A stretch of 64,000 nucleotides of DNA from Candidatus Rokuibacteriota bacterium (GCA_003221695.1 QHSX01000041.1:93486-157485); one strand, 5' to 3'. Counted from the stretch's first letter, positions 10,235 through 58,898 are shown. A program made the numbers and translations. The notes: generated by a model not told the origin, from the sequence alone.

Positions 10235-11962
10235 CTACTGCGAAACCGCGAAGACCCAGATCACGCCACCCTGCGGCACGTCCTTCTCCCAGCCGAGAAG
10301 ATTGGAGAGGAGCCCCTGCTGGAAGGCCGGGTCGACGCCCCAGCCCGACACGACGCTGATGTACTGTGTGCCGTTGACCGCGAAGGATGACGGCGGCGCG
10401 ACGATGCCGGAGTTCGTGCGGAACTGCCACAGCACCTTCCCGCTGGACGCGTCGAAGGCGCGGAATTGCCGGTCATTCGTCCCGCCCGTGAAGACGAGCC
10501 CGCCGGCGGTGGTCAGCATCCCACCCCAGGCCATCGAGTCGGGGAACTGGTGACTCCACGCCCGCTTCACCCCGTTGAGGTCCCAGGCCTGGATCTGGCC
10601 GAAGTACTTCGCGCTCTTGTCGACGGCGAAGCCGATGTCGGGGATGTCCACGCCCGTCCACCATTGCCCGGCGACGTACTGCTGGACCTTGCCTTCCATG
10701 AACCCGCAGTGGTTGTCGTTGGCCGGGATGAAGAGGCGCCCCATCTTGGGGTTGTAGGCGGCCGAAGGCCAGTCCTTGCCGCCCCAGAGCGACGGACAGA
10801 AGTCGGCGCGCTTGCCGGTCTTCGGAATCCGCTCGGCGTAGTATTCGGGACGGCCGGTCTTCGGATCGATGCTCCGGAACACGTTTTGCTTGACGTACGC
10901 ATTGGCGGAGACGAACCCGATCCGTTCGCGGCTCCGCTCCAGCAGGTACAGATAGCCGTTGCGCGCCGGGTGGACCAGTCCTTTGACGATGCGCCCGTCC
11001 TTCTGATAGTCGAGGACGAGCGGCGCGTCCGGCTCGTCCCAGTCCCACGATTCGTTCCACTGGTACTGGAAGTGGCCCTTCATCTTGCCCGTCTCGGGCT
11101 CGATGGCGACGGTTGACGCGGTGTAGAGGTTGTCACCCTGGCGCTGATCCCCGAACCAGGGCGAGGCGTTTCCGGTGCCCCAGTAGGTGAGGTTCAGCTC
11201 GGGATCATAGGTACCCGTCAGCCAAACCGACGCGCCGCCCCGTTGCCAGGTGTCGCCAGACCACGTGTCGTGCCCGGGCTCGCCCGGGCCGGGAATCGTG
11301 TGCGTCTTCCACGCGGGCTCGCCGCTCCGAGCGTCGAAGGCCTGCACGAAGCCTCGGACGCCGAACTCTCCGCCGGAGACGCCGACCATGACCTTGCCCT
11401 TCGCGATGAGCGGGGCGAGCGTCATGTAGTAGCCGGTGTGGTAGTCCTCGACCTTCTTTTCCCATGCGACCTTTCCGGTCCTGGCGTCGAGGGCGACCAG
11501 GAAGCAGTCCAGGCTCGCCAGGTACACCTTGTCGTCGTACAGGGCGATCCCGCGGCTCGTGTTATGAAGCGCCTTGAAATCCTCGGGCAATTCCCGCTTG
11601 TAGCGCCAGAGGAACTTGCCCGTCTTCGCCTCGAGGGCGATGACCTGAGCGTACGGGGTCACGACGAACATCACGCCGTTGTTGACGATGGGCGGTGCTT
11701 CGTGGCCCGAGTCCACCCCCGTGGAGAAGGCCCAGACGGGAGTCAACTTCTTCACGTTCCCGGGGGTGATCTGCCCCAGGGGACTGTAGCCCCACCCTTG
11801 ATAGTTGCCGCGGATCTGCAACCAGTTCTCGGGTTCCGGCTTGACCAGCCGTTGCTCGGTGACCGGGCTGTAGCTGCCCTGAGCCACCGCCATCCCCGGC
11901 AGCATCAGAAGGCCGAGGACAGCTGCGAGCGCCAGTAGGGTTCTGCTTGTCTTCACGATCAT
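10235..11962 (-). CDS. PQQ-dependent dehydrogenase, methanol/ethanol family (periplasmic quinoprotein)
   Basis: Trimmed to the ATG at 11962 (MIVKTSRTLLALAAVLGLLMLPGMAVA signal), preceded by GGAGGA. Eight-bladed PQQ propeller with W-motifs that aligns by eye to MxaF/XoxF/ExaA, including the active-site segment SWDWDEPD. Confidence 0.9.
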   Translation of the reverse strand: MIVKTSRTLLALAAVLGLLMLPGMAVAQGSYSPVTEQRLVKPEPENWLQIRGNYQGWGYSPLGQITPGNVKKLTPVWAFSTGVDSGHEAPPIVNNGVMFVVTPYAQVIALEAKTGKFLWRYKRELPEDFKALHNTSRGIALYDDKVYLASLDCFLVALDARTGKVAWEKKVEDYHTGYYMTLAPLIAKGKVMVGVSGGEFGVRGFVQAFDARSGEPAWKTHTIPGPGEPGHDTWSGDTWQRGGASVWLTGTYDPELNLTYWGTGNASPWFGDQRQGDNLYTASTVAIEPETGKMKGHFQYQWNESWDWDEPDAPLVLDYQKDGRIVKGLVHPARNGYLYLLERSRERIGFVSANAYVKQNVFRSIDPKTGRPEYYAERIPKTGKRADFCPSLWGGKDWPSAAYNPKMGRLFIPANDNHCGFMEGKVQQYVAGQWWTGVDIPDIGFAVDKSAKYFGQIQAWDLNGVKRAWSHQFPDSMAWGGMLTTAGGLVFTGGTNDRQFRAFDASSGKVLWQFRTNSGIVAPPSSFAVNGTQYISVVSGWGVDPAFQQGLLSNLLGWEKDVPQGGVIWVFAVSQ

Positions 11963-26035: not shown

Positions 26036-27739
26036 TTAGAGGCGCAGGGCGAGCCGCTTGCTGACGCGCCCGCCCTGGATGTGGTTGTTGACGTAACCCT
26101 TCGACTGGTTGCGCCCGGGATCTCCGGCGACCACGATGCCGATCCATGCGGCTCGCGGAAACACGCGCACGGGCCGGTCGGGATCGCCGGACCCCGCGTA
26201 CTCGGGCGGAAGCGCGCCGGACTCCGCCAGCGCCTTCAGGCTGAACGCCGTGCTCCCGAGATGCCACGCGTACCTCTCCACCTCGCGCGCGGGGATCGTG
26301 ACGTTCTCGTGGAGGTAGGCGCGCACGTCGTCCTTCGTCCACCCGTCGGCCGCGATGACCCGCGCGATGCTCGGGCCGATGACCAGCAGTGGCTGCCACC
26401 GCGCGTACTTCATCCCCGTGAACGACCAGTAGGCGCACGCCCGCCCGAAGACGTCGGCCAGGACCTGGACGTGGTCGAGCGCGCGCGTGCCTGCGGTGTA
26501 GATCGGCGGGCTCGAGCTCACCACGCTCTGCACCGTCACGACGCCGTCGTCCTTGGCGAACCCCTGGTCCTGCCCGAAGGTCGTCCAACCGATCTCGGCG
26601 GCCGCGTCCTCGTCCTCGGCGAGCGCCACGTTGAAGGTGGCGGCGATGCTTCCCTTGTCGCCGGCGCCCGGTGGAATGCGGAGCCCGGCGACGTTCCGGA
26701 GATAGAGACGCAAGAACCGGCCGAGGCTCGTGTTGGCCTGCCGGCCGACGCGCATGACGCCCTGGCCGCGGTTGAAATCGAGCGCCTTCGCGACGGCGCC
26801 ACTCACGATGATGAGCGGCTCCCAGCCCGGGGTCGATCCCGCGTCCTGCACCCTGAACTCCGGTTCGGCGATCGCCTCGACCACCGCGATCAGAAGGGGC
26901 ATGTACTCCGGACGGCAGCCGGCCATCACGCCGTTGACCGCGATACTCCAGACGGTGGCGGCGCGATTCTCGGGCGAGAGGGTCCCGATCACCTCGGCGG
27001 GCGACCGATCCGCGAACTCGAGAAAGCGCTCCACGCGCGGAATCGTGGGAGGGATCACCGGCAGTCCGTCGGTCCACAGGCGCGCGTAGAAGAACTCCTG
27101 GACCTGGTCGAGCGTCCCGCGAAAGACGACGTCGCGGGCGGCGGGCTCGACGGCGCGGGTCAGCGCCGTCTCCACGGGCCGCGCCAAGCCGTCGACGATC
27201 GCGTCGATGAGCCGCTCGACCTTGGCGCGCACCGTCTCGGGGCCATCGGTCATCGGCACGCCGGGATACTCGGCGATCGGGAGCGCCGGCATGCCGACGC
27301 CCTTGGCCACGACGGCGGCCTGCTCCCGGAACGGCGTGGTGACGATCGAGACGCTCGGGACACCGGCCCGCTCGGCGATCGCCGCGGCCCGCAGCACGGC
27401 GGGCGTGCAGCTCCCTCAGGCGCCGACGGCGGAGATGACGGCGTCGCAGCCGTGCTTGCGGAGCAGGGCCGGGAGGGTCGCCGCCAGCTCCGCTTCGTCG
27501 CGGCCGTGGGTCGAGCCGAGCGTCTCGTAGTCGACGAACCGAACACCGGGATAGCGCTGCGCGAGCGCGCGCCGGATGAGCGGGAAGATCTCCTCGCCCT
27601 TGAAGAGGTAATCCCACAGCTCACCGATCGTCTTGCCGGCGAGATCGGGACTGCGCGAGGCGAGCGCCGTCGGGGCGGCCGCGGACGGCGCGAGCGGCCA
27701 GACGACTTCGTAGACGGGCTCTCGATCGGCGGTCGTCAT
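26036..27739 (-). CDS. UGSC-motif selenoprotein (probable UGSC family); in-frame TGA at 27416..27418 read as selenocysteine
   Basis: Track ORFs 27416..28099 and 26036..27397 are in the same frame, separated only by a TGA and 6 codons with no start codon. The joined product reads ...HGCDAVISAVGA-U-GSCTPAVLRAAAIAERAGVPSVSIVTTPF.... Protein-like composition contrasts with the Arg/Gly-rich alternative frame. Start ATG at 27739. Confidence 0.65.
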
Positions 27740-27743
27740 GCTC

Positions 27744-28505
27744 TCACTCCCGGTAGTCCAGGCCGGCCGCGGCGAACCGCGACTTGAAGGCGGGTCGCGC
27801 CAGGAAGGCGATGAACGCGCGCGCCGCCTCCGGCACGGCACTGCGCGCGGCGAGGCCGGCCGAGTAGGTGGTGATCTTTTGCAGGTCTTTCGGCAACGGA
27901 CCCACCAGGGCGACGCCCTTGACGGGGACGATCTCGCTGATCTGGTGCGCGACCAGCTCGACCTCCCCCTTGGCGACCAGCTCCGCCGGGTAGCCCCCAG
28001 GCACGAGCCGGGTCTTCGCCTTGACCGCCTCGGCGATGCCCAGCCGCTCGAGCACGCCCGCGAAATGGATCCCGCTGGTGCCGCCCTGGGCCGGGTCAAC
28101 GTAGACGAGGGACCTCGCGGCGCGCAGGGTCTGCGTGAGGGCCTCGGGCGTGGAGATGTCGGGCTTCGGCGCGCCCTCGCGCACCGCGATGCCCATTCCC
28201 GTTCGGGCGATGTCCGTCCTGGTGCCGGGGATGACGGCCCCCTGACGCGTCATCTCGTCGATGGCGACATCGCTCATGATGACGACGTCCGCGCTCTCGC
28301 CGGCCGTCAGCTTCTGGCGGATGGCGCCGACCGTCCCGAAGGCGAGCGCCACGGTGTGCCCCGTCTCCCGACGGAACTCTTCGGCCAGATCGGTCACGAT
28401 CGCCCTCACCGCGCCCGCGCTCAGGACCCGGACCTCCGCCGCCTGGGCGTGGTCCACGCCCGCCCCCACCGCCACGGCGATCAAGAGCGCACCGAGCCTC
28501 CGCAT
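27744..28505 (-). CDS. ModA-like periplasmic substrate-binding protein (PBP2 molybdate/tungstate-binding family), no cognate permease nearby
   Basis: Start at internal Met 28505 with a signal peptide (MRRLGALLIAVAVGAGVDHAQA). Bilobal ModA-like sequence (VLSAGAVRAIVTDLAEEF..., GGTSGIHFAGVLERLGI). Confidence 0.65.
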   Translation of the reverse strand: MRRLGALLIAVAVGAGVDHAQAAEVRVLSAGAVRAIVTDLAEEFRRETGHTVALAFGTVGAIRQKLTAGESADVVIMSDVAIDEMTRQGAVIPGTRTDIARTGMGIAVREGAPKPDISTPEALTQTLRAARSLVYVDPAQGGTSGIHFAGVLERLGIAEAVKAKTRLVPGGYPAELVAKGEVELVAHQISEIVPVKGVALVGPLPKDLQKITTYSAGLAARSAVPEAARAFIAFLARPAFKSRFAAAGLDYRE

Positions 28506-28625
28506 CAGGGTCCTCCCCTTCGAGGGTACGTCGCCTTGCGCACGGCGTTGTCGACGAGAGCACCGGGCGGCGCCGACACTATCGCAAACGTTCTCGCGAC
28601 GCAATGCGGGCTCGCTGAACCCCCG

Positions 28626-29381
28626 TCAGGCGATCTTGATGATCCCCGGCTCGACCGGCTTGAACCGGTCGGCGACCAACGGATCGTGGCCCGCGACGAT
28701 CAGCCGCTCGGCGCCGGCGAGGGCGTGGATCGTCTCGAAGGCCGCGAGCATCTCGGGCAGGCTCGTGACGATCTGGACGGGCTGGCGCGTCTCCACGTTG
28801 CGGTAGAAGTGCGCGGCATCGGAGGTGAGCACGACCGTCCCGCGTCGGGTCTGGACCGTGACGATCTGGAGCCCCGCGGTGTGGCCGCCGACGCGATGGA
28901 CGCCGATCCCGGGGAGCACCTGGCGGTCGCCGTCGATGATCCGGACGCGGTTCGCATAGGTCAGCGTCACCAGCCGCGCGAGCGCCCCGACGTTCGCCGA
29001 TTGGCGGAACGCCGGCGCGTGGCCGTACGGCCCAGTCCAGAAGGCCACCTCGTCCTGCTGGATCCAGTACTCCGCGCCGGGGAACAGACTGTGCCCGGCC
29101 CAGTGGTCGTAGTGGAGGTGCGTGATGAGCGCCACGGGCACGTCCGCCGGCTTCACGCCCGCGCGCTCGACCATCGCCGCCGGGCTCACGTAGCCCCGGA
29201 TCCCGCGCTCCCGCGCGTCGTCGTCGAGGAACCCGGTGTCCACGAGGATCGGATGAGCGCCACCGAGGATCAGCCAGACGTAGTAGTGGAGCGTGATCGG
29301 CTCGTGCGACGCCTCGCGGTAGAAGAACTGGCAGGCCGTCGTGTCCCGCTCTCCGTACTTGAGCGCGTACACCTCGTACAT
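28626..29381 (-). CDS. MBL-fold metallo-hydrolase (N-acyl-homoserine-lactonase-like)
   Basis: Metal-binding motif HLHYDHWAGH plus downstream H and D ligands, and a size typical of AiiA-like lactonases. Confidence 0.7.
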   Translation of the reverse strand: MYEVYALKYGERDTTACQFFYREASHEPITLHYYVWLILGGAHPILVDTGFLDDDARERGIRGYVSPAAMVERAGVKPADVPVALITHLHYDHWAGHSLFPGAEYWIQQDEVAFWTGPYGHAPAFRQSANVGALARLVTLTYANRVRIIDGDRQVLPGIGVHRVGGHTAGLQIVTVQTRRGTVVLTSDAAHFYRNVETRQPVQIVTSLPEMLAAFETIHALAGAERLIVAGHDPLVADRFKPVEPGIIKIA

Positions 29382-29467
29382 GGGTCACCTCGCTCGCGTG
29401 GTCGTCCTTCGTCCGGCTCGATTGTATGGCAAGCTGTGGCAGCCCAACACGAGGGGGTCGACGGCTC

Positions 29468-30271
29468 ATGAGCGGACGACTGAGCGGCAAAATCGCGATC
29501 GTGACCGGCGCCGGTTCGCGGGGCCCCGGCCTCGGGAACGGCAAGGCGACCGCCCTGCTCTTCGCCCGGGAGGGGGCGAAGGTCCTGTGCGCCGATCAGA
29601 TGAAGGAGCGCGCCGAGGAGACCGTCGGGTTGATCCGGGGCGCTGGGGGTGAGGCGTTCGCATTCACCGCCGATGTGACACGTGCCGCCGAGTGCCGGGC
29701 GATGGTCAAGATCGCGGTCGAGCGCTGGGGGGGCCTCGACATCCTCCACAACAACGTCGGCATCGAGTCGCGCAAGGATCTCCTCGAGACGCCGGAAGAC
29801 GAGTGGGACCGCGTGATGGCCGTCGACCTCAAGTCCATGTTCCTCGCCACGCAGGCGGCGGTGCCGGCGATGCTGAGCCGCGGCGGTGGCGCGGTCGTCT
29901 GCGTTTCCTCCATCGCGGCGCTGCGGGGCCACGGACGCACCGCGTACGCCACGGCGAAGGCCGGCGTCATCGGGTTCGTCCGCTCCATCGCGGTCCAGCT
30001 CGGTCCCAAGGCCATTCGCGTCAACGCCATCGCGCCGGGTCCCGTGTGGACGCCGATGGTGGAGGACCTCGGTCCCGACGCCCGCGAGCGCCGGCGGCGC
30101 GCCAGTCCCCTCGGCACCGAGGGGACCGGCTGGGATGTGGCCTGGGGCGCCGTCTACCTCGCGAGCGACGAGGCGCGCTGGGTCACGGGCCAGACACTCA
30201 TCATCGACGCCGGGCTCACGCTGACGACCCGCGAGGGTTCGCTCGGCTTGCCGTCGCCAGGAGGTCCGTGA
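29468..30271 (+). CDS. SDR-family oxidoreductase
   Basis: TGAGSRGPGLG cofactor motif variant, NNAG, and the catalytic S...YxxxK (YATAKAGV). Confidence 0.85.
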   Translation: MSGRLSGKIAIVTGAGSRGPGLGNGKATALLFAREGAKVLCADQMKERAEETVGLIRGAGGEAFAFTADVTRAAECRAMVKIAVERWGGLDILHNNVGIESRKDLLETPEDEWDRVMAVDLKSMFLATQAAVPAMLSRGGGAVVCVSSIAALRGHGRTAYATAKAGVIGFVRSIAVQLGPKAIRVNAIAPGPVWTPMVEDLGPDARERRRRASPLGTEGTGWDVAWGAVYLASDEARWVTGQTLIIDAGLTLTTREGSLGLPSPGGP

Positions 30272-30308
30272 GCGGAGAGAGCCGGAGAGAAAGGAGCGAG
30301 ACCAGGTC

Positions 30309-31238
30309 ATGAAGATCGGGTTCATCGGCCTCGGCACCATGGGGCGTCATATGGCGTCCAACCTGATCCGGGCGGGCCACGCGCTGGTGGTCCACGACGT
30401 GCGACGGGAGGCGGCGGCACCCCACCGCGACGCGGGCGCCGGCTGGGCCGACACGCCCCGCGCGGTGGCGGAGGCGACCGACGTGGTATTCACGTCGCTG
30501 CCCGGGCCTCCCGAGGTCGAGGCGGTCGCGCTCGGCGAGCAGGGGCTTCTCACAGGGCTCGCGCCGGGCAAGGTCTACTTCGATCTGACGACCAACGCGC
30601 CCGCCCTCGTCCGCCGGATCCACGCGGGCTTCACGGCGCGGGGGATCCATATGCTGGACGCTCCGGTGAGCGGCGGCCCGCGCGGGGCCGAGACGCGGCG
30701 GCTCGCCCTCTGGGTCGGGGGCGACGAGGCCGTCTTCAAGCGCTACAAGGCGGTGCTCGATGCCATCGGTGATCAGCCCTACTATGTCGGGCCGATCGGC
30801 GCGGGCTCGATCGCGAAGCTCGTCCACAACTGCGCGGGCTATGTCATCCAGACCGCGCTGGCCGAGGTCTTCACGTTGGGAGTCAAGGCGGGTGTCGATC
30901 CGCTCGCGCTGTGGAAGGCCGTCCGCCAGGGCGCGGGCGGGCGACGCCGCACGTTCGACGGCCTGGCCGAGCAGTTCCTACCGGGTCGGTTCGAGCCGGC
31001 GGCGTTCGCGCTGCGCCTGGCGCACAAGGACGTCACCCTGGCGGTCGGCCTCGCCCGCGAGCATCGAGTGCCGATGCGGCTCGCCACGATCACGCTCGAG
31101 GAGCTCACCGAGGCGCTCAACCGTGGCTGGGGCGAGCGCGACTCGCGGGTTGCGATGCTCCTTCAGGAGGAGCGCGCCGGTGTCGAGATTCGCGTGCCCG
31201 ACGCCGCGATCCGTCAAGCGCTCGAGCTCGGGGGATGA
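30309..31238 (+). CDS. NAD(P)-dependent 3-hydroxyisobutyrate/2-hydroxy-3-oxopropionate reductase-family dehydrogenase
   Basis: N-terminal GFIGLGTMG Rossmann motif and conserved DAPVSGG and KLVHN motifs of the HIBADH family. Confidence 0.85.
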   Translation: MKIGFIGLGTMGRHMASNLIRAGHALVVHDVRREAAAPHRDAGAGWADTPRAVAEATDVVFTSLPGPPEVEAVALGEQGLLTGLAPGKVYFDLTTNAPALVRRIHAGFTARGIHMLDAPVSGGPRGAETRRLALWVGGDEAVFKRYKAVLDAIGDQPYYVGPIGAGSIAKLVHNCAGYVIQTALAEVFTLGVKAGVDPLALWKAVRQGAGGRRRTFDGLAEQFLPGRFEPAAFALRLAHKDVTLAVGLAREHRVPMRLATITLEELTEALNRGWGERDSRVAMLLQEERAGVEIRVPDAAIRQALELGG

Positions 31239-31257
31239 AGACCGCGCGGGGGGCGCG

Positions 31258-31455
31258 CTACCTCACCCTCCGCCTCGTGAGGTACTGACGGAGCGCCGTG
31301 TCCACGAGCTCGTGGAGGGGTAGGCCATTCTCCACCGCGCAGCGAACGATGCGGCGTTTGACCGTGGAGTCGACCCACACGTGCATCCGCCGACTCAGTG
31401 GATTCGCCGGTCTGCCGACTCGCCGTTTCTCGTCCGTCATCGCCAGCAATCTCAT
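31258..31455 (-). CDS. ribbon-helix-helix (CopG-like) small DNA-binding protein
   Basis: 65 aa from the internal Met. A beta-strand (RMHVWVD) is followed by two helices (STVKRRIVRCAVENG / LPLHELVDTALRQYL), typical of RHH proteins. No partner toxin gene is adjacent. Confidence 0.4.
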   Translation of the reverse strand: MRLLAMTDEKRRVGRPANPLSRRMHVWVDSTVKRRIVRCAVENGLPLHELVDTALRQYLTRRRVR

Positions 31456-31658
31456 CGAGGGCCTCCCTAGGAATTGATTTTGCGAATATTGGCCCCCGCC
31501 GCCAGGGCGGGCAATCGGGTGAATACCGGAAAATGGCGGGAGGGAAATACCGGAAATGCCCCGTCCGGCGGGGCGCCGAGCCCCTCTCGAGCGCTCGGGA
31601 GTCCCGCGGGAGGGCACCGATCTGTGCCGGTGCCGGTCTGTGCTATTGTCGCGGTCGC

Positions 31659-32660
31659 ATGCGGACGGTACGGATCGAGGAGCGCGATCTGGGCAAGACG
31701 GGGCTACGGGTGTCCGCCCTCGGGTTCGGCTGCGGAAACGTCGGCGGGCTGATGATCCGCGGCAGTGTCGCCGAGCGCGAGCGCGCCGTCGCGCGCGCCG
31801 TGGAGCTGGGGGTCAACTACTTCGACACCGCCCCCTCGTACGGCGACGGCCAGTCGGAGCTGAATCTCGGGACCGCGCTGAAGGCGGTTCGGGCGCCCGT
31901 CTACGTCGGCACGAAGTTCCGGCTGGACGCGGCGGACCTGCGTGACGCGCGTCGCGCGATCGGTCGCTCGCTCGACGCCAGCCTCCAGCGTCTCGGCCGG
32001 GAGCGCGTCGATCTCCTCCAGCTACACAACCCCCTTGCCGAGCGCCGCGCCGAGAGCGCGCTCGCCGTGGGCGACGTCATCGCCGAGGTGGTCCCGGCGC
32101 TCCTGGCTCTCCAGGCGCAGGGCAAGACGCGCTTCTGGGGCATCACGGCGCTCGGCGACACGCCCGCACTGCACCGGCTCGTCGGCGCGGCGCCGCTCGA
32201 CACCGCGCAGGTCTGCTACAACCTGCTCAACCCCAGCGCCGGCCTCGAGGTCCCCTCGGGCTTCCCCGCCCAGGACTTCCGGCGCCTGCTCGGCGCGGCG
32301 CAGGAGCGACGTGTCGGCGTCATCGTGATCCGCGTGCTCGCCGCCGGCGCGCTGAGCGGTGTGACGACGCGTCATCCCGTTGCGGTGCCGAAGGTGGATC
32401 CGATCGCCACGGGGCCGGACTACGCGAGCGACGTCGAGCGGGCCCAGCCGCTGCGGACGCTCGTCACGGACGGCCACGTCGAGAGCCTCGTCGAGGCCTC
32501 GCTCAGGTTTCCCCTGAGCAACCCGGCCGTCTCCACCGTGCTGCTCGGCTACTCGAGCCTGGCGCACCTCGAGACCGCGGCCGCCGCCGTCGCCAAGGGC
32601 CCGCTGCCCGCCAGGGCGCTCGACCGGCTGACCGCCGTGTGGGCGCTATCTGGACGCTGA
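31659..32660 (+). CDS. aldo/keto reductase
   Basis: Trimmed to the ATG at 31659. Motifs LGFGCGNVGG, NYFDTAPSYGDGQSE and LLQLHNP are typical of the AKR11-14 families. Confidence 0.85.
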   Translation: MRTVRIEERDLGKTGLRVSALGFGCGNVGGLMIRGSVAERERAVARAVELGVNYFDTAPSYGDGQSELNLGTALKAVRAPVYVGTKFRLDAADLRDARRAIGRSLDASLQRLGRERVDLLQLHNPLAERRAESALAVGDVIAEVVPALLALQAQGKTRFWGITALGDTPALHRLVGAAPLDTAQVCYNLLNPSAGLEVPSGFPAQDFRRLLGAAQERRVGVIVIRVLAAGALSGVTTRHPVAVPKVDPIATGPDYASDVERAQPLRTLVTDGHVESLVEASLRFPLSNPAVSTVLLGYSSLAHLETAAAAVAKGPLPARALDRLTAVWALSGR

Positions 32661-33151
32661 CCAAAGGTCGGCCAGTAGCGGCACACCTGGGCGTGGGCGA
32701 GGATGGTGGGCGTCAAATCGTTGCCGCAAAGTGGGCAGCGGAACACATCGGGATCCGCGCGCGGAATCCAGCGGAGCTGATAGGTGTTCTGACACTGCTG
32801 GCAGGGGACGACGTGATGGCCACAACAGAGAAACAGGATCGCCTGTGCCTTAGGGTCGAGGAAGTCGATGTGCGCCAGGGCACGGGGGACCACGATCCAC
32901 CTCCCGGCCTGGAGTTCCGCGTCCATGTCGGCGCGCTGCCGCCGATCGGCGCGGCGTCGCTCCAATCCGTGACCGTTGGCTATGGCCCGTCGCTCTCTGG
33001 ACCGGCGATCGGGGATCACGCGCACGTTCGCGGCGTCGCCGAAAGCGTGGCTGAGCGACCGGCACAGCTCCAGCTTGGCCCTGGGGACGATGATGATGAG
33101 GGACTGCTCGGCGTTCCCTACGGCGATTTCGGAACCCGCGTCACCCTGCAT
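32549..33151 (-). CDS. hypothetical protein with C-rich zinc-ribbon-like segment; 3' end overlaps the AKR gene convergently (extent uncertain)
   Basis: The N-terminal motif SLIIIVPRAKLELCRSLSHAFGDAANVRVIPDRRSRERR is paralogous to the N-terminus of the divergent neighbour at 33286. CCGHHVVPCQQCQ...FRCPLCGN is a zinc-ribbon-like segment. The last ~110 nt overlap the AKR 3' end and may be non-coding. Confidence 0.35.
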   Translation of the reverse strand: MQGDAGSEIAVGNAEQSLIIIVPRAKLELCRSLSHAFGDAANVRVIPDRRSRERRAIANGHGLERRRADRRQRADMDAELQAGRWIVVPRALAHIDFLDPKAQAILFLCCGHHVVPCQQCQNTYQLRWIPRADPDVFRCPLCGNDLTPTILAHAQVCRYWPTFGQRPDSAHTAVSRSSALAGSGPLATAAAAVSRCARLE

Positions 33152-33285
33152 ACCCCGCCTCCCTGTTGCGGATCTCCAGCTTACTCGCGCGTCCTTGAGA
33201 ACGAAACTTTTTCGTGCGCGTCTGGACCGCTGTGGAACCGGTTGAAAAGCATGGCGAAGACGCCATACCCGGATGGGGGATCTTC

Positions 33286-33807
33286 ATGACGCCACGAAGT
33301 CCCGTCCTTACGGTGGCTCCCGAGTTCCTCGTGATCGTGGCCGCGGACCGCTCGGACCTCTTCCCTCGGATTCGCCGCCAGTTCCTCGACGATCCGCGCG
33401 TACACGTGATCCTCGACCGACGCCAGTGGGAGCGAGGCCACCGGGCGCGGAACCAGTCGGCCGATCGGCGGCCGGCTGATCAGCGGCGTGCGCCTGATTA
33501 CTGGGAAGACCCTCGGTACCACCCCGTGGTGTTGGTTCCCACTGCCCGACGGGCTCCGGCCTCTCGCGTCCGCGCCACCCCCACCTCGGCGACTACAGGG
33601 GGCCGGACGGAAGCGACCGAGTTCGACCAGCTCTGCCGTTGGGTCGGCACCGGCCAGGAACTGCTCGCCCGCATCGGATCGTGGGTCGAAACCGTGGAGG
33701 CGTTCCAGCGAGAGGCGCGAGAGCTCCGCCGCAGCCTCGAGGAACGCGACGACGCGCTGTTGAAACTCCAGGCGGAGGTGGAGCGCCTGACACGGGTACG
33801 AGGCTAG
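33286..33807 (+). CDS. hypothetical protein (N-terminal domain paralogous to 32549..33151; C-terminal coiled coil)
   Basis: Start at the internal Met (MTPRSPVLTVAPEFLVIVAADRSDLFPRIRRQFLDDPRVHVILDRRQWERG). Shares an xIVxxxxxL...F.D..V.VIxDRRxxER pattern with the divergent gene. The C-terminus is helical (ELRRSLEERDDALLKLQAEVERL). Confidence 0.4.
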   Translation: MTPRSPVLTVAPEFLVIVAADRSDLFPRIRRQFLDDPRVHVILDRRQWERGHRARNQSADRRPADQRRAPDYWEDPRYHPVVLVPTARRAPASRVRATPTSATTGGRTEATEFDQLCRWVGTGQELLARIGSWVETVEAFQREARELRRSLEERDDALLKLQAEVERLTRVRG

Positions 33808-33967
33808 GCCCGTTGACATGCGCGCGGCAGCCCGATAGACTTCTACTTCGTGGGAACGAAGTCGGACAACCGTCCGGTGTTTCGGCTTCCCGGCCGCGGC
33901 GTCTTCTGACCGCCGTCGCGGCTTCGTAGTCCATTCCAGTCGCAGCCCGAGGCGTCATCGCGTTCGA

Positions 33968-35551
33968 GTGATGATCGCGCAAACGTTCCGCAGCGCCCGG
34001 ATCATGATCGTCGACGACGAGCCGGCGATGGTGCGTCTGCTGGAGCAGCTCCTCGAGCGCGCCGGCTATACCCACCTCTGCGGCACCTCGGACCCGCGCG
34101 AGGTGCCGACACGCTACAGAGAGTTCGGGCCCGATCTGATCTTGCTGGATCTGCGGATGCCCCACCTCGACGGCGTGCAGGTCCTCGAGCGGCTCAAGCG
34201 GGAGACGGGGACGGAGACCTATCTGCCGGTCCTCCTGCTGACCGCCGACGCCGCGCCCGAGAGCAGGCGTCGCGCGCTCACGGCCGGCGCGAGCGATTTC
34301 GTGACGAAGCCCTTCGACCGGATCGAGCTGCTCCTCCGCGTCGACAACCTGCTCGCGATGCGGTTCCTGCACCGGGAGCTTCGACGCCAGAACGAGGACC
34401 TCGAAGCGCAGGTTCGAGAACGCACGCATCAGCTCCTCCAGACGGAAAAGCTCGCGACGATGGGGAACCTCTTGGCCGGCGTCGCGCACGAGCTCAACAG
34501 CCCGCTGTCCGTGATCCTGGGGCACGTCGCCCTGTTCGCGGCCTCGGCCGCCGACGACGGCGCCCGGGCACGGGCGCAGGGCATCGGCGACGCCGCGGAA
34601 CGGTGTGTGCGCATCGTGCGGAGCTTTCTGACGATGGCCCGGCGCCACCCGCCCGAGCGCGCGCACGTGTCGGTGAATCAGGTCCTCAAGGACGCCGTGG
34701 AGCTGCTCGCGTACGAGCTCCGGGTCGCCAACGTCGACGTCCGCGTCGATCTCCCGGATGACCTGCCCCTCGTCTGGGCCGACGGCCACCAGCTGCGGCA
34801 GGTCGCCGTGAATCTCATCGCCAACGCCCGTCAGGCGATGCTGGACACCCCTCCGCCTCGCCGGCTGACCCTCGCGGCGCGCTCTGACGACTCGAGTCGG
34901 AGCGTGCGCGTCGAGATCGCCGACACCGGCCCGGGCATCCCGCAGGAGATCCAGGCTCGGATCTTCGAGCCGTTCTTCACCACCAAGTCCGAAGGCGAGG
35001 GGACGGGGCTGGGCCTCGCGTTGACACGCGGCATCATCGAGGGGCACGGGGGCACGATCCGCGTCGAGAACCGCCGGGGACACGGGGCCTGCTTCCTCAT
35101 CGAATTGCCGGTGGGAGCGCCCCCGGTCGGCAGCGACGCCCCCGGGACGCTCGACGCCGCGGCACCGGTGGTGGGCAAGGCCATCCTGGTGGTCGACGAC
35201 GAGCCGGCCGTCGCCTCGATCCTGGCCGAGGCGTTGACACGCGACGGCTACACGGTCGATACCGCCCTGAACGGCGCTCTGGCGCTCGAGAAGCTCGAGG
35301 CGCAGCCCTACGACCTGATCATCAGCGACAGCGGCATGCCCGTGATGAACGGCCTCGAGCTCTACCGCGAAGTGGAACGGCGCGAGCCGCGCCTGGCCCG
35401 ACGGTTCGTCTTCGTGACCGGCGACATCCTCAATCCGAGGACCCGGGAGTTCCTCGAACGGATCGGAGCGCCGCGGCTCGAGAAGCCGTTCACGCTCGAC
35501 GGCGTCAAGCGGGTGGTTCGACGCGCCCTCCTGGCTCACGAACCCGGTTAG
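33968..35551 (+). CDS. hybrid sensor histidine kinase / response regulator (REC-HisKA-HATPase_c-REC)
   Basis: N-terminal receiver (IMIVDDEP...DLILLDLRMP), an H-box (LAGVAHELNSPL), N/G1/G2 boxes (NLIANARQAM, DTGPGIP, GTGLGLAL) and a C-terminal receiver (ILVVDDEP...DLIISDSGMP). Confidence 0.85.
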   Translation: MMIAQTFRSARIMIVDDEPAMVRLLEQLLERAGYTHLCGTSDPREVPTRYREFGPDLILLDLRMPHLDGVQVLERLKRETGTETYLPVLLLTADAAPESRRRALTAGASDFVTKPFDRIELLLRVDNLLAMRFLHRELRRQNEDLEAQVRERTHQLLQTEKLATMGNLLAGVAHELNSPLSVILGHVALFAASAADDGARARAQGIGDAAERCVRIVRSFLTMARRHPPERAHVSVNQVLKDAVELLAYELRVANVDVRVDLPDDLPLVWADGHQLRQVAVNLIANARQAMLDTPPPRRLTLAARSDDSSRSVRVEIADTGPGIPQEIQARIFEPFFTTKSEGEGTGLGLALTRGIIEGHGGTIRVENRRGHGACFLIELPVGAPPVGSDAPGTLDAAAPVVGKAILVVDDEPAVASILAEALTRDGYTVDTALNGALALEKLEAQPYDLIISDSGMPVMNGLELYREVERREPRLARRFVFVTGDILNPRTREFLERIGAPRLEKPFTLDGVKRVVRRALLAHEPG

Positions 35552-35561
35552 GCCTGCTCGA

Positions 35562-36029
35562 TCACGCCCCCGTCAGGCTCCGGAGCAGGTCGAGGACGCG
35601 GAGGATCTCGCCGCCGCTCCGGACCATGTGACGGTCGCCGGCCTGACCCCACCTGAGGAGCCCGTCGCGGTCGATGACGAACGTCGCGCGATAGGCCACG
35701 TTCCGCTCCTCGTCCCACACGCCGTACGCGCGCATCACCGTCCGATGGACGTCGCTCAAGAGCGCGAACGGGTGCGCGTGTCGCCGATGGAACTCCGCCT
35801 GTGAGAAGGGGCTGTCGCCACTGATCGCAAGGACGACGGCCCCGCGTCGCTCCACCTCCGCGGCGACCCCGCCGAGGTCGCTCAGCTCCGGCGTTCAGAT
35901 CCGGCCCCAGTCGTAGCAGTAGAAGAGCAGCACGACGTGGGCCGTCCCTTTGAAGTCCGAGAGCGCGACGGTGCGGCCGCTCGTCGACGGCAGGGAGAAG
36001 GCGGGCGCCGGGTGCCCGTAGCGGAGCAT
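35562..36029 (-). CDS. peroxiredoxin-like (AhpC/TSA/Bcp fold) selenoprotein; in-frame TGA at 35895..35897 at the peroxidatic position
   Basis: ATG at 36029 (preceded by AGGGG) opens [44 protein letters not shown]-[TGA]-TPELSDLGG..., and the frame continues uninterrupted into the track ORF 35562..35855, which has the Prx C-terminal pattern ([15 protein letters not shown]...LLSD...[10 protein letters not shown]). The TGA aligns with the Prx peroxidatic Cys (FYPxDFTFVCPTE). Confidence 0.65.
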
Positions 36030-36041
36030 CACGCCCCTTCC

Positions 36042-37268
36042 TCACTTCGAGATTTTGACCAACGTCACGGCATCGACCAAGCTGTTCGCCAAGAGGAAGT
36101 CGCCGTCCCGCGTGACCGAGGTGTTGCGCACGATGTTGCCGCCACCCGGGATCGTCCAACTCTGAAATTTGGCGGTCTTGGGATCGAAGCGCACGACCAT
36201 ATTCGGGGTCGACCCGGATTCGCTGTACCAGATGATGTCGTTGATCGCCGAGATGCCGTAAGGCTCGGACTTCGGCCCGCTCGGAGACGGCCACTCGGTC
36301 ACCTTGCCGGTTGCGGGATCGAGCCGACCCAGATAACCGCGCGAGAAGTCGCTGTACCAGACGATGTCGTCGCTGGTGATTGCGATGCGCCGTGGGCGGG
36401 AGGCAGAATCCGGCAATGGGTACTCACGAAATTCCAGCGTCTTGGGATCGACGCTTGCCACCTTATTGGTACCGAACAGAACGATGAAAACCGTGCCCTT
36501 CGAGTTCACCGCCATGCCGTAGGGGCGCGCCTTTGGCGTCGGCAGCGTGAGCAGCTTGATCTCGCCGGTCTTCGGGTCGAGCCGACCCACCCGGTTAGCA
36601 TTCTGCGCTGTGAACCACAGGATTCCGCTCTGGTCGAAGATCAGCGTGTGCGGATCCTTCACGTCCGGGTCCGGCATCTTATACTCGGTGACCGCACCCG
36701 TCTTCGGTTCGAGCTTGCCGATCAAGGCTCCGGTGTTTCCGGTGTACCAGATGTTGCCGTCCTTATCCTCGTCCAGACCATGCGGTCCGGAGTGAGGCGT
36801 CTTGAGTGGATATTCCTGGATACCGCCGGTCCTCGGATCGAGCCGGCCCAAGACATTGGCCATCTGGCCCGTGTACCAGAGCGATCCGTCCCTCGTCGCC
36901 AAAGGGTCGTGCGGCCGCGAGCCTGGCGTGGGCACCCGCCACGCCTTGATCGAGACCTTGGCGGGCCCCGGGACCACCACGCCGGTAGGCTTCCCTTTTT
37001 CCGGGAAGTTCTTGGTCAAGTACTCCGTGATCGTGGCGACCTGATCCGCCGGCACGTTCACTCCGTGATTGGCCATCATCCGCATAACGGTGCGCCAGCC
37101 CTCGGCCGTGTATCCGCCGCCGAGGCGCGCGTAGAAGGGGTGGCAGCTATTGCAGAGGGCTGCGACCATTTCCTTGCCCTTTCCCTCGGGCAACTCCTGG
37201 CTCGAGGCCGGGAGTGCCCCGCACAGCAGAGCGGCTGCCATCAAAGACGGAAGTGATTTTTTCGACAT
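36042..37268 (-). CDS. secreted mono-heme cytochrome c fused to a beta-propeller (Vgb/NHL-like repeats)
   Basis: Signal peptide, then a heme site CNSCH with a distal Met region. Repeated roughly 40-aa blades follow (G.L.R.DP.TG....Y.LP, IWYT/ILWF/IVWYS). Codon usage is noticeably less GC-biased (many AAG/AAA). Confidence 0.7.
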   Translation of the reverse strand: MSKKSLPSLMAAALLCGALPASSQELPEGKGKEMVAALCNSCHPFYARLGGGYTAEGWRTVMRMMANHGVNVPADQVATITEYLTKNFPEKGKPTGVVVPGPAKVSIKAWRVPTPGSRPHDPLATRDGSLWYTGQMANVLGRLDPRTGGIQEYPLKTPHSGPHGLDEDKDGNIWYTGNTGALIGKLEPKTGAVTEYKMPDPDVKDPHTLIFDQSGILWFTAQNANRVGRLDPKTGEIKLLTLPTPKARPYGMAVNSKGTVFIVLFGTNKVASVDPKTLEFREYPLPDSASRPRRIAITSDDIVWYSDFSRGYLGRLDPATGKVTEWPSPSGPKSEPYGISAINDIIWYSESGSTPNMVVRFDPKTAKFQSWTIPGGGNIVRNTSVTRDGDFLLANSLVDAVTLVKISK

Positions 37269-54887: not shown

Positions 54888-55937
54888 ATGAGCCAACCGC
54901 CCGAGCCCCCGCGCTTCGTCACCCTGCCCGAGATCCGCCGTGCGGCCAGGGAGCGCCTGCCCCGCGAGGTGTGGAACTTCGGCGACGGCGGCGCCGAGAC
55001 GGAGACGACGCTCCGCCGCAACCGCCGCCACCTCGACCGCCTCGCCATCCAGCAGAATATCCTCGTCGACGTCCGCACGATCGATCTCCGAACGAGCCTT
55101 CTCGGCGTGCCGCTCGCGTGGCCGGTGGCCGTCGCGCCGATGGGCGGTCTCGTCCTCTTCCACCCCGAGGGCGACGTCGAGATGGCGCGCGGGGCGGGGA
55201 AGGCCGACACGCTCCAGTGGCTCTCCGGCGCCACCGGGTGGCCCGTCGAGGAGGTCGCCAGGGCCGGCATGGCGCCCCAGATGTTCCAGCTCTACCATCA
55301 CGGCGACCGCGGGTGGGTCGGTGACCTGCTCGCGCGCGTCGAGGCCTCCGGATACCTGGCGGTCGCCCTCACCGTCGACGTCCAGCTCTACGGCCGCCGC
55401 GAGCGCGACATCCTCGCGCGCTGGAGCCCGCGCAAAGCCATGGAGATCGCCCCGAACCCGCGCGGGCCGAACCCCGAGTATCAGGCGCGGCTCACGTGGG
55501 ACGACGTCGAGTGGCTGCTGAAGACGACGAAGCTCCCCGTGGGACTGAAAGGGATCATGACGGTGCGCGACGCCCGCCGCGCCGTGGACATGGGGGTGCG
55601 CCTGATCTGGGTCTCCAACCACGGCGGTCGCCAGCTCGACCAGACGCAATCGACCATCGACGCCCTTCCCCCCATCGTCGACGCCGTGGGCGATCGTGCC
55701 GACGTCGTGGTCGACGGCGGCTTCGCGCGCGGGACCGATGTGGTGAAAGGACTCGCGCGTGGCGCGAAGGTGGTGGCGGTGGGGCGACCGGCCCTCTGGG
55801 GCCTCGCCGCCGACGGCGCCGCCGGCGTCGCGCGCGCCTTCGAGATCCTGCGTGAGGAAGTGCGCACGACAATGGGTCTGGCGGGCCGCACGCGGATCGC
55901 CGATCTGACGCGCGACTTGATCTTCAGGGTCGATTGA
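54888..55937 (+). CDS. FMN-dependent alpha-hydroxy-acid dehydrogenase/oxidase family protein
   Basis: Family motifs are present throughout (PVAVAPMG, QLY, SNHGGRQLD, VVVDGGFARGTDVVKGLARGA). Confidence 0.85.
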   Translation: MSQPPEPPRFVTLPEIRRAARERLPREVWNFGDGGAETETTLRRNRRHLDRLAIQQNILVDVRTIDLRTSLLGVPLAWPVAVAPMGGLVLFHPEGDVEMARGAGKADTLQWLSGATGWPVEEVARAGMAPQMFQLYHHGDRGWVGDLLARVEASGYLAVALTVDVQLYGRRERDILARWSPRKAMEIAPNPRGPNPEYQARLTWDDVEWLLKTTKLPVGLKGIMTVRDARRAVDMGVRLIWVSNHGGRQLDQTQSTIDALPPIVDAVGDRADVVVDGGFARGTDVVKGLARGAKVVAVGRPALWGLAADGAAGVARAFEILREEVRTTMGLAGRTRIADLTRDLIFRVD

Positions 55938-55959
55938 GCTACTAACCCGGGACGAGGCC

Positions 55960-57513
55960 ATGGCCACGACGACCGCGGTCACGAGCGAGCGAGGGTGCGC
56001 CGCCGAGTACGCCCGGCTGGAGGAGCGGATCCTGGCGCGGGACCAGGTCGGCGCCAGCCGCGTGCTGTACGGGCTTTTGAAGCAGGCGCGGCCGGTCACC
56101 GAGATCCTGCGCGAGACCGTGCGGATCCACGCGCCGTACACGCACGTCCCCTACCATCAGCGGCTCGACGACGGCGTGGTCAAGTTCGTGAACAACGACC
56201 ACTGCCTGCTGAGCGAGCGCGTCGGCCTGCCGCTCATGACGGTGATCCGGCCGGAGCTCGCCCTGCTGCCTCTGGCCCAGTCCGTCTGGTACATCCCCTC
56301 GGGCCTCGATCCGTGGAACCAGCTCCTCGGCCGGGCGCCGGGCCACTACACGCGCCTGTACGAGATCGCCGTGAACCAGGAGCCCCCGGTGCCCGAGGTG
56401 CATTGGCCGGACCAGGAGCCGCACGAGATCGACGGCTCGCTCGGCGAACGCCTCAACCACTGGCTCACCCTCGTCCAGCGCGGTGAGGTGCTCGCCGCGT
56501 ACCGGGTCTTCCTCGGGCTGATGGCGGACGCTGCGAACCGAAGGCCGGTGCTCGCCCATCTCGCCTTCGCCGGGCTGATCGACGTCCAGGACCGGATGCT
56601 CCACAACCGCTCCTACACGACGGGCCACAAGGCCTACCGCGCGCGCGCCACCATCGAGCTCGGGGAAGCCCTGGGCTGGGAGAGGGCACGCAGCGTGCTC
56701 TACGCCGGCGTGCCGGACATCGCGGTGGGCCCGCGCTGGTACTCGACCTACGAGATGGGCTCGAACGTGGTCCAGAACGTGCTCGACGGGCGCGATGCGG
56801 AGCTCCTGCGTCAGGACACGCCCCTCACCGCGGCCGAAGAGGCGATGCTGGTCGAGACGATCACCCGCCAGCGTGAATCCTCCGTCATCGACGCGCTCGT
56901 GGCGCTCCTCAAGGCGGGACGGGGCCCGCGGCGGATCCTCGACGCGATCCAGGTGGCCGCGGCCGAGGTCATCCTTGAGACAGGACACCCCAACAACTTC
57001 TCGATGGCGCAGCACGGCTACGAGTACTGCAACACGCTCGGGTGGTTCTACGACACGTTCGAGCACCCGCGGCGCCTTCCGCTCCTGTTCGTCGCGGCGT
57101 CCTTCATCAACCGGGCGGCCGAGCACCAGGCCAACACGCCGAACAACGGGCGCAAGGCCATCACGCCACCCCCGGGCGCGGACGCCTGGTCGTCGCGCCG
57201 CCTGCTCGAGACGTTGGACGCGGCGCTCCTCGCCCTCCGGCCCGACGAGGCGGTCGCGCTCACCGCGACCTATCTGAAAGCGGGCTTCGACCGCGCCCCG
57301 CTGGTCCAGGCGCTGGCCACGGCGGCCTGCACGCTCGGGAACGACCCCCACAACCAGGAGCTCGGGCTCTGCCTGTTGGAGGACTTCCGCCACACCAGGG
57401 CCGCCGACCGCGATCGGTTGCTCCTCGCCAGCGCCCAGCACACCGCGGGGCACCGCAAGTACGGCGACCCGTTGGAGGCCTACCGGCGCTTCGCCGAAGC
57501 GATGGAAGTATGA
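55960..57513 (+). CDS. conserved hypothetical protein (517 aa, no recognised domain)
   Basis: Long ORF with protein-like composition, tightly spaced between the FMN-dehydrogenase and the cytochrome c peroxidase genes (22-nt and 35-nt gaps). Confidence 0.55.
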   Translation: MATTTAVTSERGCAAEYARLEERILARDQVGASRVLYGLLKQARPVTEILRETVRIHAPYTHVPYHQRLDDGVVKFVNNDHCLLSERVGLPLMTVIRPELALLPLAQSVWYIPSGLDPWNQLLGRAPGHYTRLYEIAVNQEPPVPEVHWPDQEPHEIDGSLGERLNHWLTLVQRGEVLAAYRVFLGLMADAANRRPVLAHLAFAGLIDVQDRMLHNRSYTTGHKAYRARATIELGEALGWERARSVLYAGVPDIAVGPRWYSTYEMGSNVVQNVLDGRDAELLRQDTPLTAAEEAMLVETITRQRESSVIDALVALLKAGRGPRRILDAIQVAAAEVILETGHPNNFSMAQHGYEYCNTLGWFYDTFEHPRRLPLLFVAASFINRAAEHQANTPNNGRKAITPPPGADAWSSRRLLETLDAALLALRPDEAVALTATYLKAGFDRAPLVQALATAACTLGNDPHNQELGLCLLEDFRHTRAADRDRLLLASAQHTAGHRKYGDPLEAYRRFAEAMEV

Positions 57514-57548
57514 CACCATGTCAGTCATCCGGTGTTAAAGGAGGCTGG

Positions 57549-58898
57549 ATGCGCGCTCGAGAGCTAATGTGGATCGCCGTCCTGTGCGCCGTCGCCGGGC
57601 TGTCCGCCTGCAAGACCGCGCCTCCACCCGATCGTCAGAGTCAGCTCGTCGCGAAGGGGCAAGACCTCTTCTTCAACGAGACCTTCGGCGGTAACGGGCG
57701 GACGTGCGGCACCTGCCATCCGGCGGAGAACAACTTCACCATCGATCCGGCGTTCATCGCCACGCTCCCGAAGGACAATCCTCTGTTCGTCGCCGAGTTC
57801 AACCCGGCGTTGAAGGAGAACTTCGAGAATCCCGCGCTGATGCGGGAGTTCGGGCTCATTCAAGAAAACCTGGACGGGTTCGACGATCTCAAGAACAAGT
57901 TCGTCATGCGGGGGGTGCCGCACACGCTCGGTCTCCGGACGTCGGTGCAGAGCCCTGGCGGGCCGCGCACCGGGTGGTCCGGGGACGGCGCCCCGGGCGA
58001 CGGATCACTCCGATCCTTCGCGACCGGCGCGGTCATTCAGCACTTCACCAAGACCCTGAACCGGGTCCCCGGTGTCGACTTCCGCCTGCCCACCGAGGAG
58101 GAGCTCGACGCCCTGGAGGCCTTCCAGCTGTCCCTCGGGCGGCAGCAGGACCTGGCGCTGCCGCTGCCGCTCAAGGGCACCGTGCCGAAGCGGGGCCAGG
58201 AGATCTTCCTCGACAACAAACTCGGCAAGTGCAATATCTGCCATGTGAACGCGGGGGCGACGGCCAACTTCCCCGGTCGGGGCCCCCTCGGGAATGCCAA
58301 CTTCAACACCGGTGTGGAGGACCTGCCCGATCAACCCGCTCGCCTGACGGGCAAACGGGTCCCGCGTGACGACGGGTTCCGCACGCCGGGCGACGGCACG
58401 TTCAACGTGCCGCCGCTCGTGGAGGCGGCGGACAGTGGGCCCTTCTTCCACAACAACGCCATCGAGACCATCGAAGGCGCGGTCGCCTTCTACGACGGGG
58501 AATCGTTCAACAAGTCTCCGGCCGGCCAGGCGCTGGCGAAGGCCGATCCCGAGGGCGCGGGCATCGAACTCGATGGGACGCAGATCGTGGCGATCGCCGC
58601 CTTCCTGCGGGTCATCAACGTGCTCGAGAACATCCGCCAGAGCGTCGTGCTACTGGAGACGAGCCTCGCCGTGTCGTCCTCCGCGGAGCGACGGCGGCTT
58701 CTCGAGCGCGCGGTTCACGAGACCGACGACAGCATCCGGGTGCTCAGCGGCGGCGGCCTTCACGCCGACGCCGTCGCCCACCTCCAGGAGGCACGACGGC
58801 TGGCAGACAAGGCCGTCCGGAGTGTATTCTTCGGACGGAAGTACACGGAGAAGGCGATCCGAGATCAGAAGCGAGCGAGAGCGTTCCTTGTCGACTGA
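57549..58898 (+). CDS. di-heme cytochrome c peroxidase / MauG-family lipoprotein with C-terminal helical extension
   Basis: ATG at 57549 with RBS AAAGGAGG. Lipobox LSAC. Two heme sites (CGTCH and CNICH). The spacing and flanking motifs (FNVPPL, FFHNNAIETI) match the bacterial CCP/MauG family. Confidence 0.75.
   Translation: MRARELMWIAVLCAVAGLSACKTAPPPDRQSQLVAKGQDLFFNETFGGNGRTCGTCHPAENNFTIDPAFIATLPKDNPLFVAEFNPALKENFENPALMREFGLIQENLDGFDDLKNKFVMRGVPHTLGLRTSVQSPGGPRTGWSGDGAPGDGSLRSFATGAVIQHFTKTLNRVPGVDFRLPTEEELDALEAFQLSLGRQQDLALPLPLKGTVPKRGQEIFLDNKLGKCNICHVNAGATANFPGRGPLGNANFNTGVEDLPDQPARLTGKRVPRDDGFRTPGDGTFNVPPLVEAADSGPFFHNNAIETIEGAVAFYDGESFNKSPAGQALAKADPEGAGIELDGTQIVAIAAFLRVINVLENIRQSVVLLETSLAVSSSAERRRLLERAVHETDDSIRVLSGGGLHADAVAHLQEARRLADKAVRSVFFGRKYTEKAIRDQKRARAFLVD

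Follow-up and report, generated by a model that had tools for sequence, protein, structure and literature searches.

Does a TGA codon inside an otherwise open gene mark a decayed reading frame, or does it encode selenocysteine (Sec)? The question is raised by two genes in a 64,000-nucleotide (nt) stretch of DNA from a Candidatus Rokuibacteriota bacterium (GCA_003221695.1 QHSX01000041.1:93486-157485), hereafter the window, in which positions are counted from its first letter. Gene 1 is a long-form member of the UGSC family and gene 2 is a peroxiredoxin resembling AhpE and BCP. A sequence-only reading had proposed that both carry a recoded UGA in an intact frame, with a hairpin where a selenocysteine insertion sequence (SECIS) would lie and an active-site context suited to Sec or Cys. 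In this study, we compared both genes with their homologues at the level of codon, RNA hairpin, protein family and structure model. We put the probability that both in-frame UGAs encode Sec, and that both are genuine selenoprotein genes, at roughly 90%. The features on which the argument turns are as follows.

26036..27739, minus strand: gene 1, predicted long-form UGSC-family selenoprotein of 567 amino acids (aa) with Sec at residue 108 (from translation)
27416..27418, minus strand: predicted Sec codon (TGA) of gene 1, in the motif GA-U-GSC-TP
27387..27404, minus strand: SECIS-type hairpin of gene 1, GCCCGC-CGUGCU-GCGGGC (from folding and comparison)
35562..36029, minus strand: gene 2, predicted AhpE/BCP-like peroxiredoxin selenoprotein of 155 aa with Sec at residue 45 (from translation)
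35895..35897, minus strand: predicted Sec codon (TGA) of gene 2, at the position of the peroxidatic Cys
35863..35881, minus strand: SECIS-type hairpin of gene 2, GCGACCUC-GGC-GGGGUCGC (from folding and comparison)

Conserved in-frame TGA codons in two open frames

The frame of gene 1 runs from an ATG at 27739 to a TAA at 26036, and that of gene 2 from an ATG at 36029 to a terminal TGA at 35562. The presence of two TGA-interrupted genes within 26036-36029 is confirmed; position 26036 is the 3′ terminus of gene 1, and 36029 is where gene 2 starts. Around its TGA (27418-27416) gene 1 reads DAVISAVGA-TGA-GSCTPAVLRAAA, or more widely RKHGCDAVISAVGA-TGA-GSCTPAVLRAAAIAERAG; the in-frame TGA of gene 2 is at 35897-35895. 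Both flanking frames are open, as had been claimed, and the protein is conserved on either side of both codons. The window is ~70% GC, and a coding signal in the GC content of third codon positions (GC3, 0.88-1.0) runs across both TGAs. When the whole window was scanned for in-frame TGA codons with coding-type GC3 on both sides, genes 1 and 2 were the only credible cases in 64 kb. TGA terminates 31 of the 48 supported genes in the window and is thus a normal stop, which excludes genome-wide reassignment and makes the recoding site-specific. At least six independent soil-metagenome assemblies cover the locus at 99.2%–100% identity, and since both TGAs are present in all of them, they do not result from assembly error.

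The conservation of both TGA codons in homologues is far beyond chance. Database relatives of gene 1 fall into two classes. Proteins of 450-470 aa, with 80% query cover and 60%–99% identity, correspond to the part that follows the TGA, while proteins of 572-596 aa, with 99% query cover and ~50% identity, align end to end. In the full-length relatives, which include Novosphingobium, Actinacidiphila and Chelativorans proteins, Cys occupies precisely the TGA column, within G[AS]-C-G[TG]C-TP (e.g., GxCGTCTP), and two proteins of 572-575 aa (P0085 and P0103) already bear the NCBI name ‘UGSC family (seleno)protein’. Among 78 genome loci retrieved with the long UGSC family (50%–85% identity), all of which keep the U/C-G-S/T-C motif, the column holds TGA in 73, a Cys codon (TGC/TGT) in four (L077, L079, L080, L082) and TAG in one. 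The TGA forms are spread over Methylomirabilota, Chloroflexota, Burkholderiales, Acidobacteriota and Actinomycetota. The closest named relatives come from metagenome-assembled genomes (MAGs) of Methylomirabilota, Rokuibacteriota and Tectomicrobia, and the window itself derives from a soil population of Methylomirabilota (Rokubacteria).

Two observations on this family stand by themselves. The TAG form (L078:1230-1232), from an Actinomycetota MAG (JALYMS010000293.1), is two substitutions away from TGA; its open reading frame (ORF) is otherwise intact, and the hairpin downstream retains 6/6 pairs. No tRNA-Sec was detected in the 8.6 kb around this locus. The TAG form is consistent with the UAG-Sec recoding published for UGSC proteins of Geodermatophilaceae, as reported in PMC5330540 citing Mukai 2016. 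In addition, a groundwater Chloroflexi MAG (JACPQD01) contains 15 separate long UGSC loci, all with TGA (L011-L015, L017, L020, L023, L026, L029, L030, L033, L037, L046 and L056), which points either to one selenoprotein family having expanded into many paralogues or to a bin of mixed origin.

For gene 2, the motif could be located in 79 metagenome homologues of 68%–97% identity, and the Sec column is TGA in every one of them, within FYC[YF]D[WF]G[GNSR]I-U-[TS]PEL. Above ~55% identity, an exhaustive representative search returned only fragments that begin after the TGA. The nearest full-length peroxiredoxins with Cys are 35%–44% identical, with a canonical FYPxDF[TS]xxC motif whose Cys falls at the TGA column. 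Judged from the sequences available, the gene 2 clade appears to exist only as Sec forms, with the active site CxxxGxxU.

The prediction that automated annotation would truncate both genes is borne out by the public calls. JGI and ENA callers split gene 1 into proteins of 107 and 453 aa and gene 2 into 44 and 57 or 62 aa, and GenBank presents the tail of gene 2 as a 107-aa ‘hypothetical protein’ of a Candidatus Rokuibacteriota MAG (P0122). Close to the 3′ terminus of gene 2 (window 35562-35620), an indel of 1 nt is present in three of the six near-identical strains (L001, L002, L005), and in these the called C-terminal fragment is 62 aa rather than 57 aa. In four JGI sequences (P0121, P0123, P0125, P0127), W is printed at the Sec position of the peroxiredoxin. 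Because these lie on contigs of <1 kb, we read the W as TGA translated under genetic code 4, an annotation artefact that gives rise to false Trp forms.

SECIS-type hairpins downstream of both TGA codons

Both genes have a hairpin at the SECIS position, as the sequence-only reading had suggested, and both hairpins are conserved across homologues. The hairpin of gene 1 starts 11 nt past the UGA, and in the window a lower stem extends it to 27381-27411. Taking the U of UGA as column 1, columns 15-20 form pairs with 27-32 (GCCCGC/GCGGGC) around a CGUGYU loop. Over 73 sequences, 97.3% of the cells are paired, compared with 34%–55% when the partners are slid. The entropy of third codon positions is 0.10-0.89 bit in the hairpin and 1.5-1.8 bit in flanks whose residues are equally conserved, with individual synonymous codons being frozen (CGG in 71/73, CCC in 67/73). 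Out of six pairs, the TGA forms keep a mean of 5.84, the four Cys forms keep 2-4 and the TAG form keeps all. The support for the gene 1 hairpin is nucleotide conservation at synonymous sites. For gene 2, the spacer is 13 nt and columns 17-24 pair with columns 28-35, with 98.8% of cells paired among 60 distinct homologues (39%–59% with partners slid). Here compensatory double changes occur in three pairs (C-G to G-C, A-U to G-C), and the covariation score was matched by none of 500 shuffles.

In the fdhF gene of E. coli, Liu et al. are said to have placed the upper stem-loop of the minimal SECIS 11 nt downstream of the UGA, in 1998. The 11-nt spacing of gene 1 matches this rule, and the stem of gene 2 begins 13 nt past the UGA. 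Both hairpins described here resemble that element in being short and GC-rich with G/U in the apical loop; there is no sequence similarity between it and either of them. Decoding of both UGAs probably follows the standard bacterial route, in which SelB carrying Sec-tRNA(Sec) would bind the hairpin 11-13 nt downstream while the ribosome sits on the UGA, and release factor 2 would be outcompeted.

Families, active sites and structure models

Gene 1 encodes an N-terminal UGSC domain (aa 11-185) followed by a conserved C-terminal domain of ~370 aa. The Pfam UGSC model (PF24696) matches residues 11-185 at 1.8e-30, with a score of 106.7 against a cut-off of 25. The NCBIfam model NF041046, which was built for a short form of ~147 aa, scores 63.8 against a cut-off of 125. 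Gene 1 shares the U-G-S-C motif with this family, in which the Cys forms have CGTC at the same column, and differs from the ~147-aa NCBIfam form in its length of 567 aa and in a C-terminal domain for which no Pfam family was found at E values up to 10. The family itself was first described in 2008 in the GOS (Global Ocean Sampling) metagenome, as a ‘UGSC-containing protein’ and a ‘UGSC/Unknown_1 fusion’ (PMC2398784).

An AlphaFold model of a Cys homologue (P0056) has a predicted local distance difference test score (pLDDT) of 92 and a predicted template-modelling score (pTM) of 0.92. Its N-terminal domain is parallel alpha/beta, and strand 103-109 and helix 114-127 are joined by the loop that carries the residue equivalent to Sec108. 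On this model, the loop would be the standard place for a redox-active CxxC. Foldseek matched the UGSC domain of the model to flavodoxin-like and Rossmann-like domains over ~165 aligned columns, with a root mean square deviation (rmsd) of 5.5-5.8 Å. The modelled fold is thus different from the thioredoxin-like fold guessed in 2008 (PMC2398784). A sequence profile search of the PDB gave a weak match to hydantoin racemase (E 0.059), restricted to the N-terminal domain and with U on the catalytic Cys, which we regard as no more than a lead. A model of the last 368 aa of the gene 1 protein has pLDDT 92.6. Foldseek with the two high-confidence models returned no convincing PDB fold for this domain, the best template-modelling score (TM) being ≤0.23; the matches at TM 0.23 or lower include class I fumarate hydratase and Toblerone-fold hydrolases. 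The UxxC pair Sec108-Gly-Ser-Cys111 is predicted to lie where, in the parallel alpha/beta domain, a beta-strand leads through a loop into the N-terminus of a helix, the usual site of a redox-active dithiol or selenenylsulfide.

Gene 2 belongs to the AhpC-TSA family (Pfam PF00578; 2.7e-35, 121.4 bits against a threshold of 26), and the active-site Arg, in a YRATF segment, is nearly invariant in its alignment. Aligned to solved structures, the U of gene 2 falls on the peroxidatic Cys of M. tuberculosis AhpE (1xxu) and of an archaeal BCP-like peroxiredoxin (2ywn). These proteins of ~153-157 aa are among the best structure matches (E ~1e-17) and cover residues 1-132 of 155; both are Cys enzymes (FFPLAFTGIC and FYPAAFTQVC, respectively), whereas gene 2 has Sec. 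The active-site context had been described in advance as appropriate for Sec or Cys, and the alignments agree: the TGA falls on the Cys of CGxC in full-length homologues of gene 1 and on the peroxidatic Cys in gene 2.

The motif of gene 2 is C38-x3-G42-x2-U45. It departs from the canonical PxxxT/SxxC(U), as CxxxGxxU replaces Pro by Cys and Thr by Gly in gene 2 and in 79/79 homologues, and only the Cys/Sec position is retained. Knowledge of Sec-peroxiredoxins dates back to 2001 (as cited in PMC13188914), and the known ones are described as having a ‘highly conserved PxxxTxxU motif’ (2026 review, PMC13188914), in contrast to the CxxxGxxU of all 79 members of the gene 2 clade. PrxU of Eubacterium acidaminophilum (‘Prx, PF00578, TxxU’, PMC13188914) shares with gene 2 the AhpC/TSA fold, Sec at the peroxidatic position and the active-site Arg. 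Gene 2 scores 64 bits with the PrxU model NF040737, below its equivalog cut-off of 270. With Sec45 in place of the peroxidatic cysteine, the enzyme may reduce peroxide through a selenenic acid, which could be resolved by the invariant Cys38, at the canonical Pro position, or by a thiol from outside the protein. As Sec is ionised at physiological pH in any case, the enzyme may be able to do without the activating Thr.

Selenocysteine machinery, alternatives and significance

Machinery for Sec is found repeatedly beside homologues of gene 1 in other taxa. At 17 of the 78 loci, mostly from Burkholderiales MAGs, selA, selB (by tblastn) or tRNA-Sec with anticodon tca is located ≤6 kb from the long UGSC gene (L010, L016, L018, L021, L022, L024, L025, L031, L032, L039, L040, L049, L051, L057, L064, L067, L084), and tRNA-Sec (tca) itself lies within 6 kb at 11 loci. 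Several different arrangements occur, including one in which the gene stands between selB and selA (L049). This suggests that the long UGSC gene travels with, or anchors, the Sec trait. We found no mention of the linkage in the UGSC and selenoprotein literature cited here. Within the wider lineage, Sec use is reported to be extensive in Methylomirabilota (PMC13188914, PMC13582414), a phylum already noted for its richness in selenoproteins; the reports include one MAG for which 63 selenoprotein genes were predicted (Deng et al. 2026, as cited in PMC13188914) and Sec-type group 4 hydrogenases (PMC13582414).

Several results weigh against a Sec assignment. No selA, selB, selD or tRNA-Sec was detected in the 64-kb window or in the 10 kb beyond either end, in a search that used tblastn with E. 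coli SelA, SelB and SelD sequences. ARAGORN found no tRNA at all in the window, and none of the ~60 window ORFs compared with Pfam was SelA, SelB or SelD. Rfam gave no match in the window at gathering thresholds, nor in either hairpin region at E values up to 10. Neither hairpin folds better by itself than shuffled sequence (z = +1.2 and -0.2). As the background is ~70% GC, folding energy is uninformative as a SECIS test, and given this non-significance in single sequences the support for the hairpins is comparative. The hairpin of gene 1 shows almost no covariation (one compensatory cell, equalled by 19/500 shuffles), because its stem is almost invariant. For gene 2, the representative search gave no close Cys form, the nearest being 35%–44% identical, and its active site is without the canonical peroxiredoxin Pro and Thr, so that the chemistry may differ from that proposed above. 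We infer that selenium is actually inserted in this organism, as we do for the redox chemistry and the substrates of the two proteins.

Three other explanations have to be weighed against Sec decoding. If the TGAs were inactivating nonsense mutations, both genes would be pseudogenes or assembly errors; gene callers do split both genes, and the window holds no Sec machinery. The same TGAs recur, however, in each of six independent assemblies, and divergent homologues keep them in 73/78 and 79/79 cases, with frames that are intact and conserved on both sides. The coding signal crosses the codon, the downstream hairpins are conserved and the parts after the TGA do not evolve neutrally. Conservation effectively refutes this explanation, to which we give only a very small residual probability, and it upholds the earlier judgement that two independent nonsense mutations are unlikely. 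Less probable again, to the point of being negligible, is that TGA is a sense codon throughout the organism (Trp or Gly, under genetic codes 4 or 25). The W printed by JGI in four sequences from contigs of <1 kb would agree with it. It is contradicted by the 31 of 48 window genes that end in TGA, by the restriction of in-frame TGAs with coding on both sides to two cases in 64 kb, by the Cys, rather than Trp or Gly, at the column in homologues that do not have TGA, and by the 70% GC of the genome.

A selenium-free bypass of the UGA deserves somewhat more attention, either as near-cognate read-through that inserts Cys or Trp or as two polypeptides per gene that assemble, since no Sec machinery was detected in the window or in the 10 kb beyond either end. 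We consider it improbable all the same. A split would cut a single fold: in the UGSC domain the model puts the break after a strand and before a helix, and in the peroxiredoxin it would fall inside the active-site loop. Conserved hairpins at SECIS spacing, and the repeated occurrence of selA, selB and tRNA-Sec near homologues of gene 1, point instead to SelB-dependent decoding.

The neighbourhood of the two genes was inspected as well. Directly upstream of gene 1 there are two genes transcribed in the same direction.

27744-28604, minus strand: SBP_bac_11 solute-binding gene (Pfam label), directly upstream of gene 1
28626-29381, minus strand: MBL-fold gene (Pfam label), further upstream of gene 1

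The start ATG of gene 1 (27739) is 4 nt past the stop of its upstream gene, and the MBL-fold gene, the SBP_bac_11 gene and gene 1 probably make up a single operon here. Of the genes around gene 1, those for MBL, solute-binding and amidase proteins are retained only in near-identical strains, and tblastn found none of them beside homologues in other taxa; the surroundings of the Novosphingobium Cys form gave no further information. Gene 2 likewise has its cytochrome c/propeller, HbpS and kinase neighbours in near-identical strains only. The sequence-only reading had also listed OsmC, a thioredoxin-fold protein and a di-haem cytochrome c peroxidase as nearby redox genes free of TGA interruptions. 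OsmC and the thioredoxin-fold gene are indeed uninterrupted, but Pfam identified no di-haem cytochrome c peroxidase among the ORFs scanned. The gene directly upstream of the peroxiredoxin (window 36042-37268, minus strand, 408 aa) has a signal-peptide-like N-terminus, one CNSCH haem-c motif and then a repeat-rich region, with no Pfam match on record. Elsewhere in the window, two long ORFs with coding signal at 55921-57513 and 56979-58898 on the plus strand, which are called in related contigs as genes of 517 aa and 449 aa, belong to no Pfam family. The remaining in-frame TGA candidates from the window scan were junctions of neighbouring genes or antisense shadow frames, and the same-frame ORF junctions (TAG or TGA) at 10237, 13282, 19542, 28628, 37313, 47190 and 54549 are ordinary neighbouring genes.

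UGSC proteins and Sec-peroxiredoxins are established selenoprotein families, of which genes 1 and 2 are new members, and their biology is largely expected in this lineage. Less expected are the peroxiredoxin clade with CxxxGxxU, a C-terminal domain in gene 1 that matches no solved fold and the repeated linkage of UGSC genes to sel loci. A broader reading, which combines these points, is possible but on balance doubtful. The peroxiredoxin would then be the type member of a soil-wide, Rokubacteria-centred clade that occurs only with Sec, a new catalytic subclass of peroxiredoxins which has discarded the activating Thr and, by placing Cys where Pro normally shields the active site, has gained an intramolecular Cys-x6-Sec redox pair. 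Under the same joint reading, many aerobic bacteria of soil and freshwater may keep the Sec trait on account of one selenoprotein, the long UGSC protein, whose C-terminal domain has no known fold and whose gene is repeatedly inserted in the selA-selB-selC locus.

It is important for genome interpretation that none of the public annotations of the locus examined (JGI, ENA and GenBank) gives either gene whole, each being split or truncated. Inventories of redox genes in Methylomirabilota MAGs that are drawn from such annotations undercount selenoproteins and carry spurious fragments. The findings add direct evidence, at the level of sequence, for selenocysteine use by an aerobic lineage that is abundant in soil. 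They also provide two leads, namely a peroxiredoxin clade that appears to be Sec-only and is without the canonical Pro and Thr, and a widespread long UGSC selenoprotein that is often linked to the Sec machinery.

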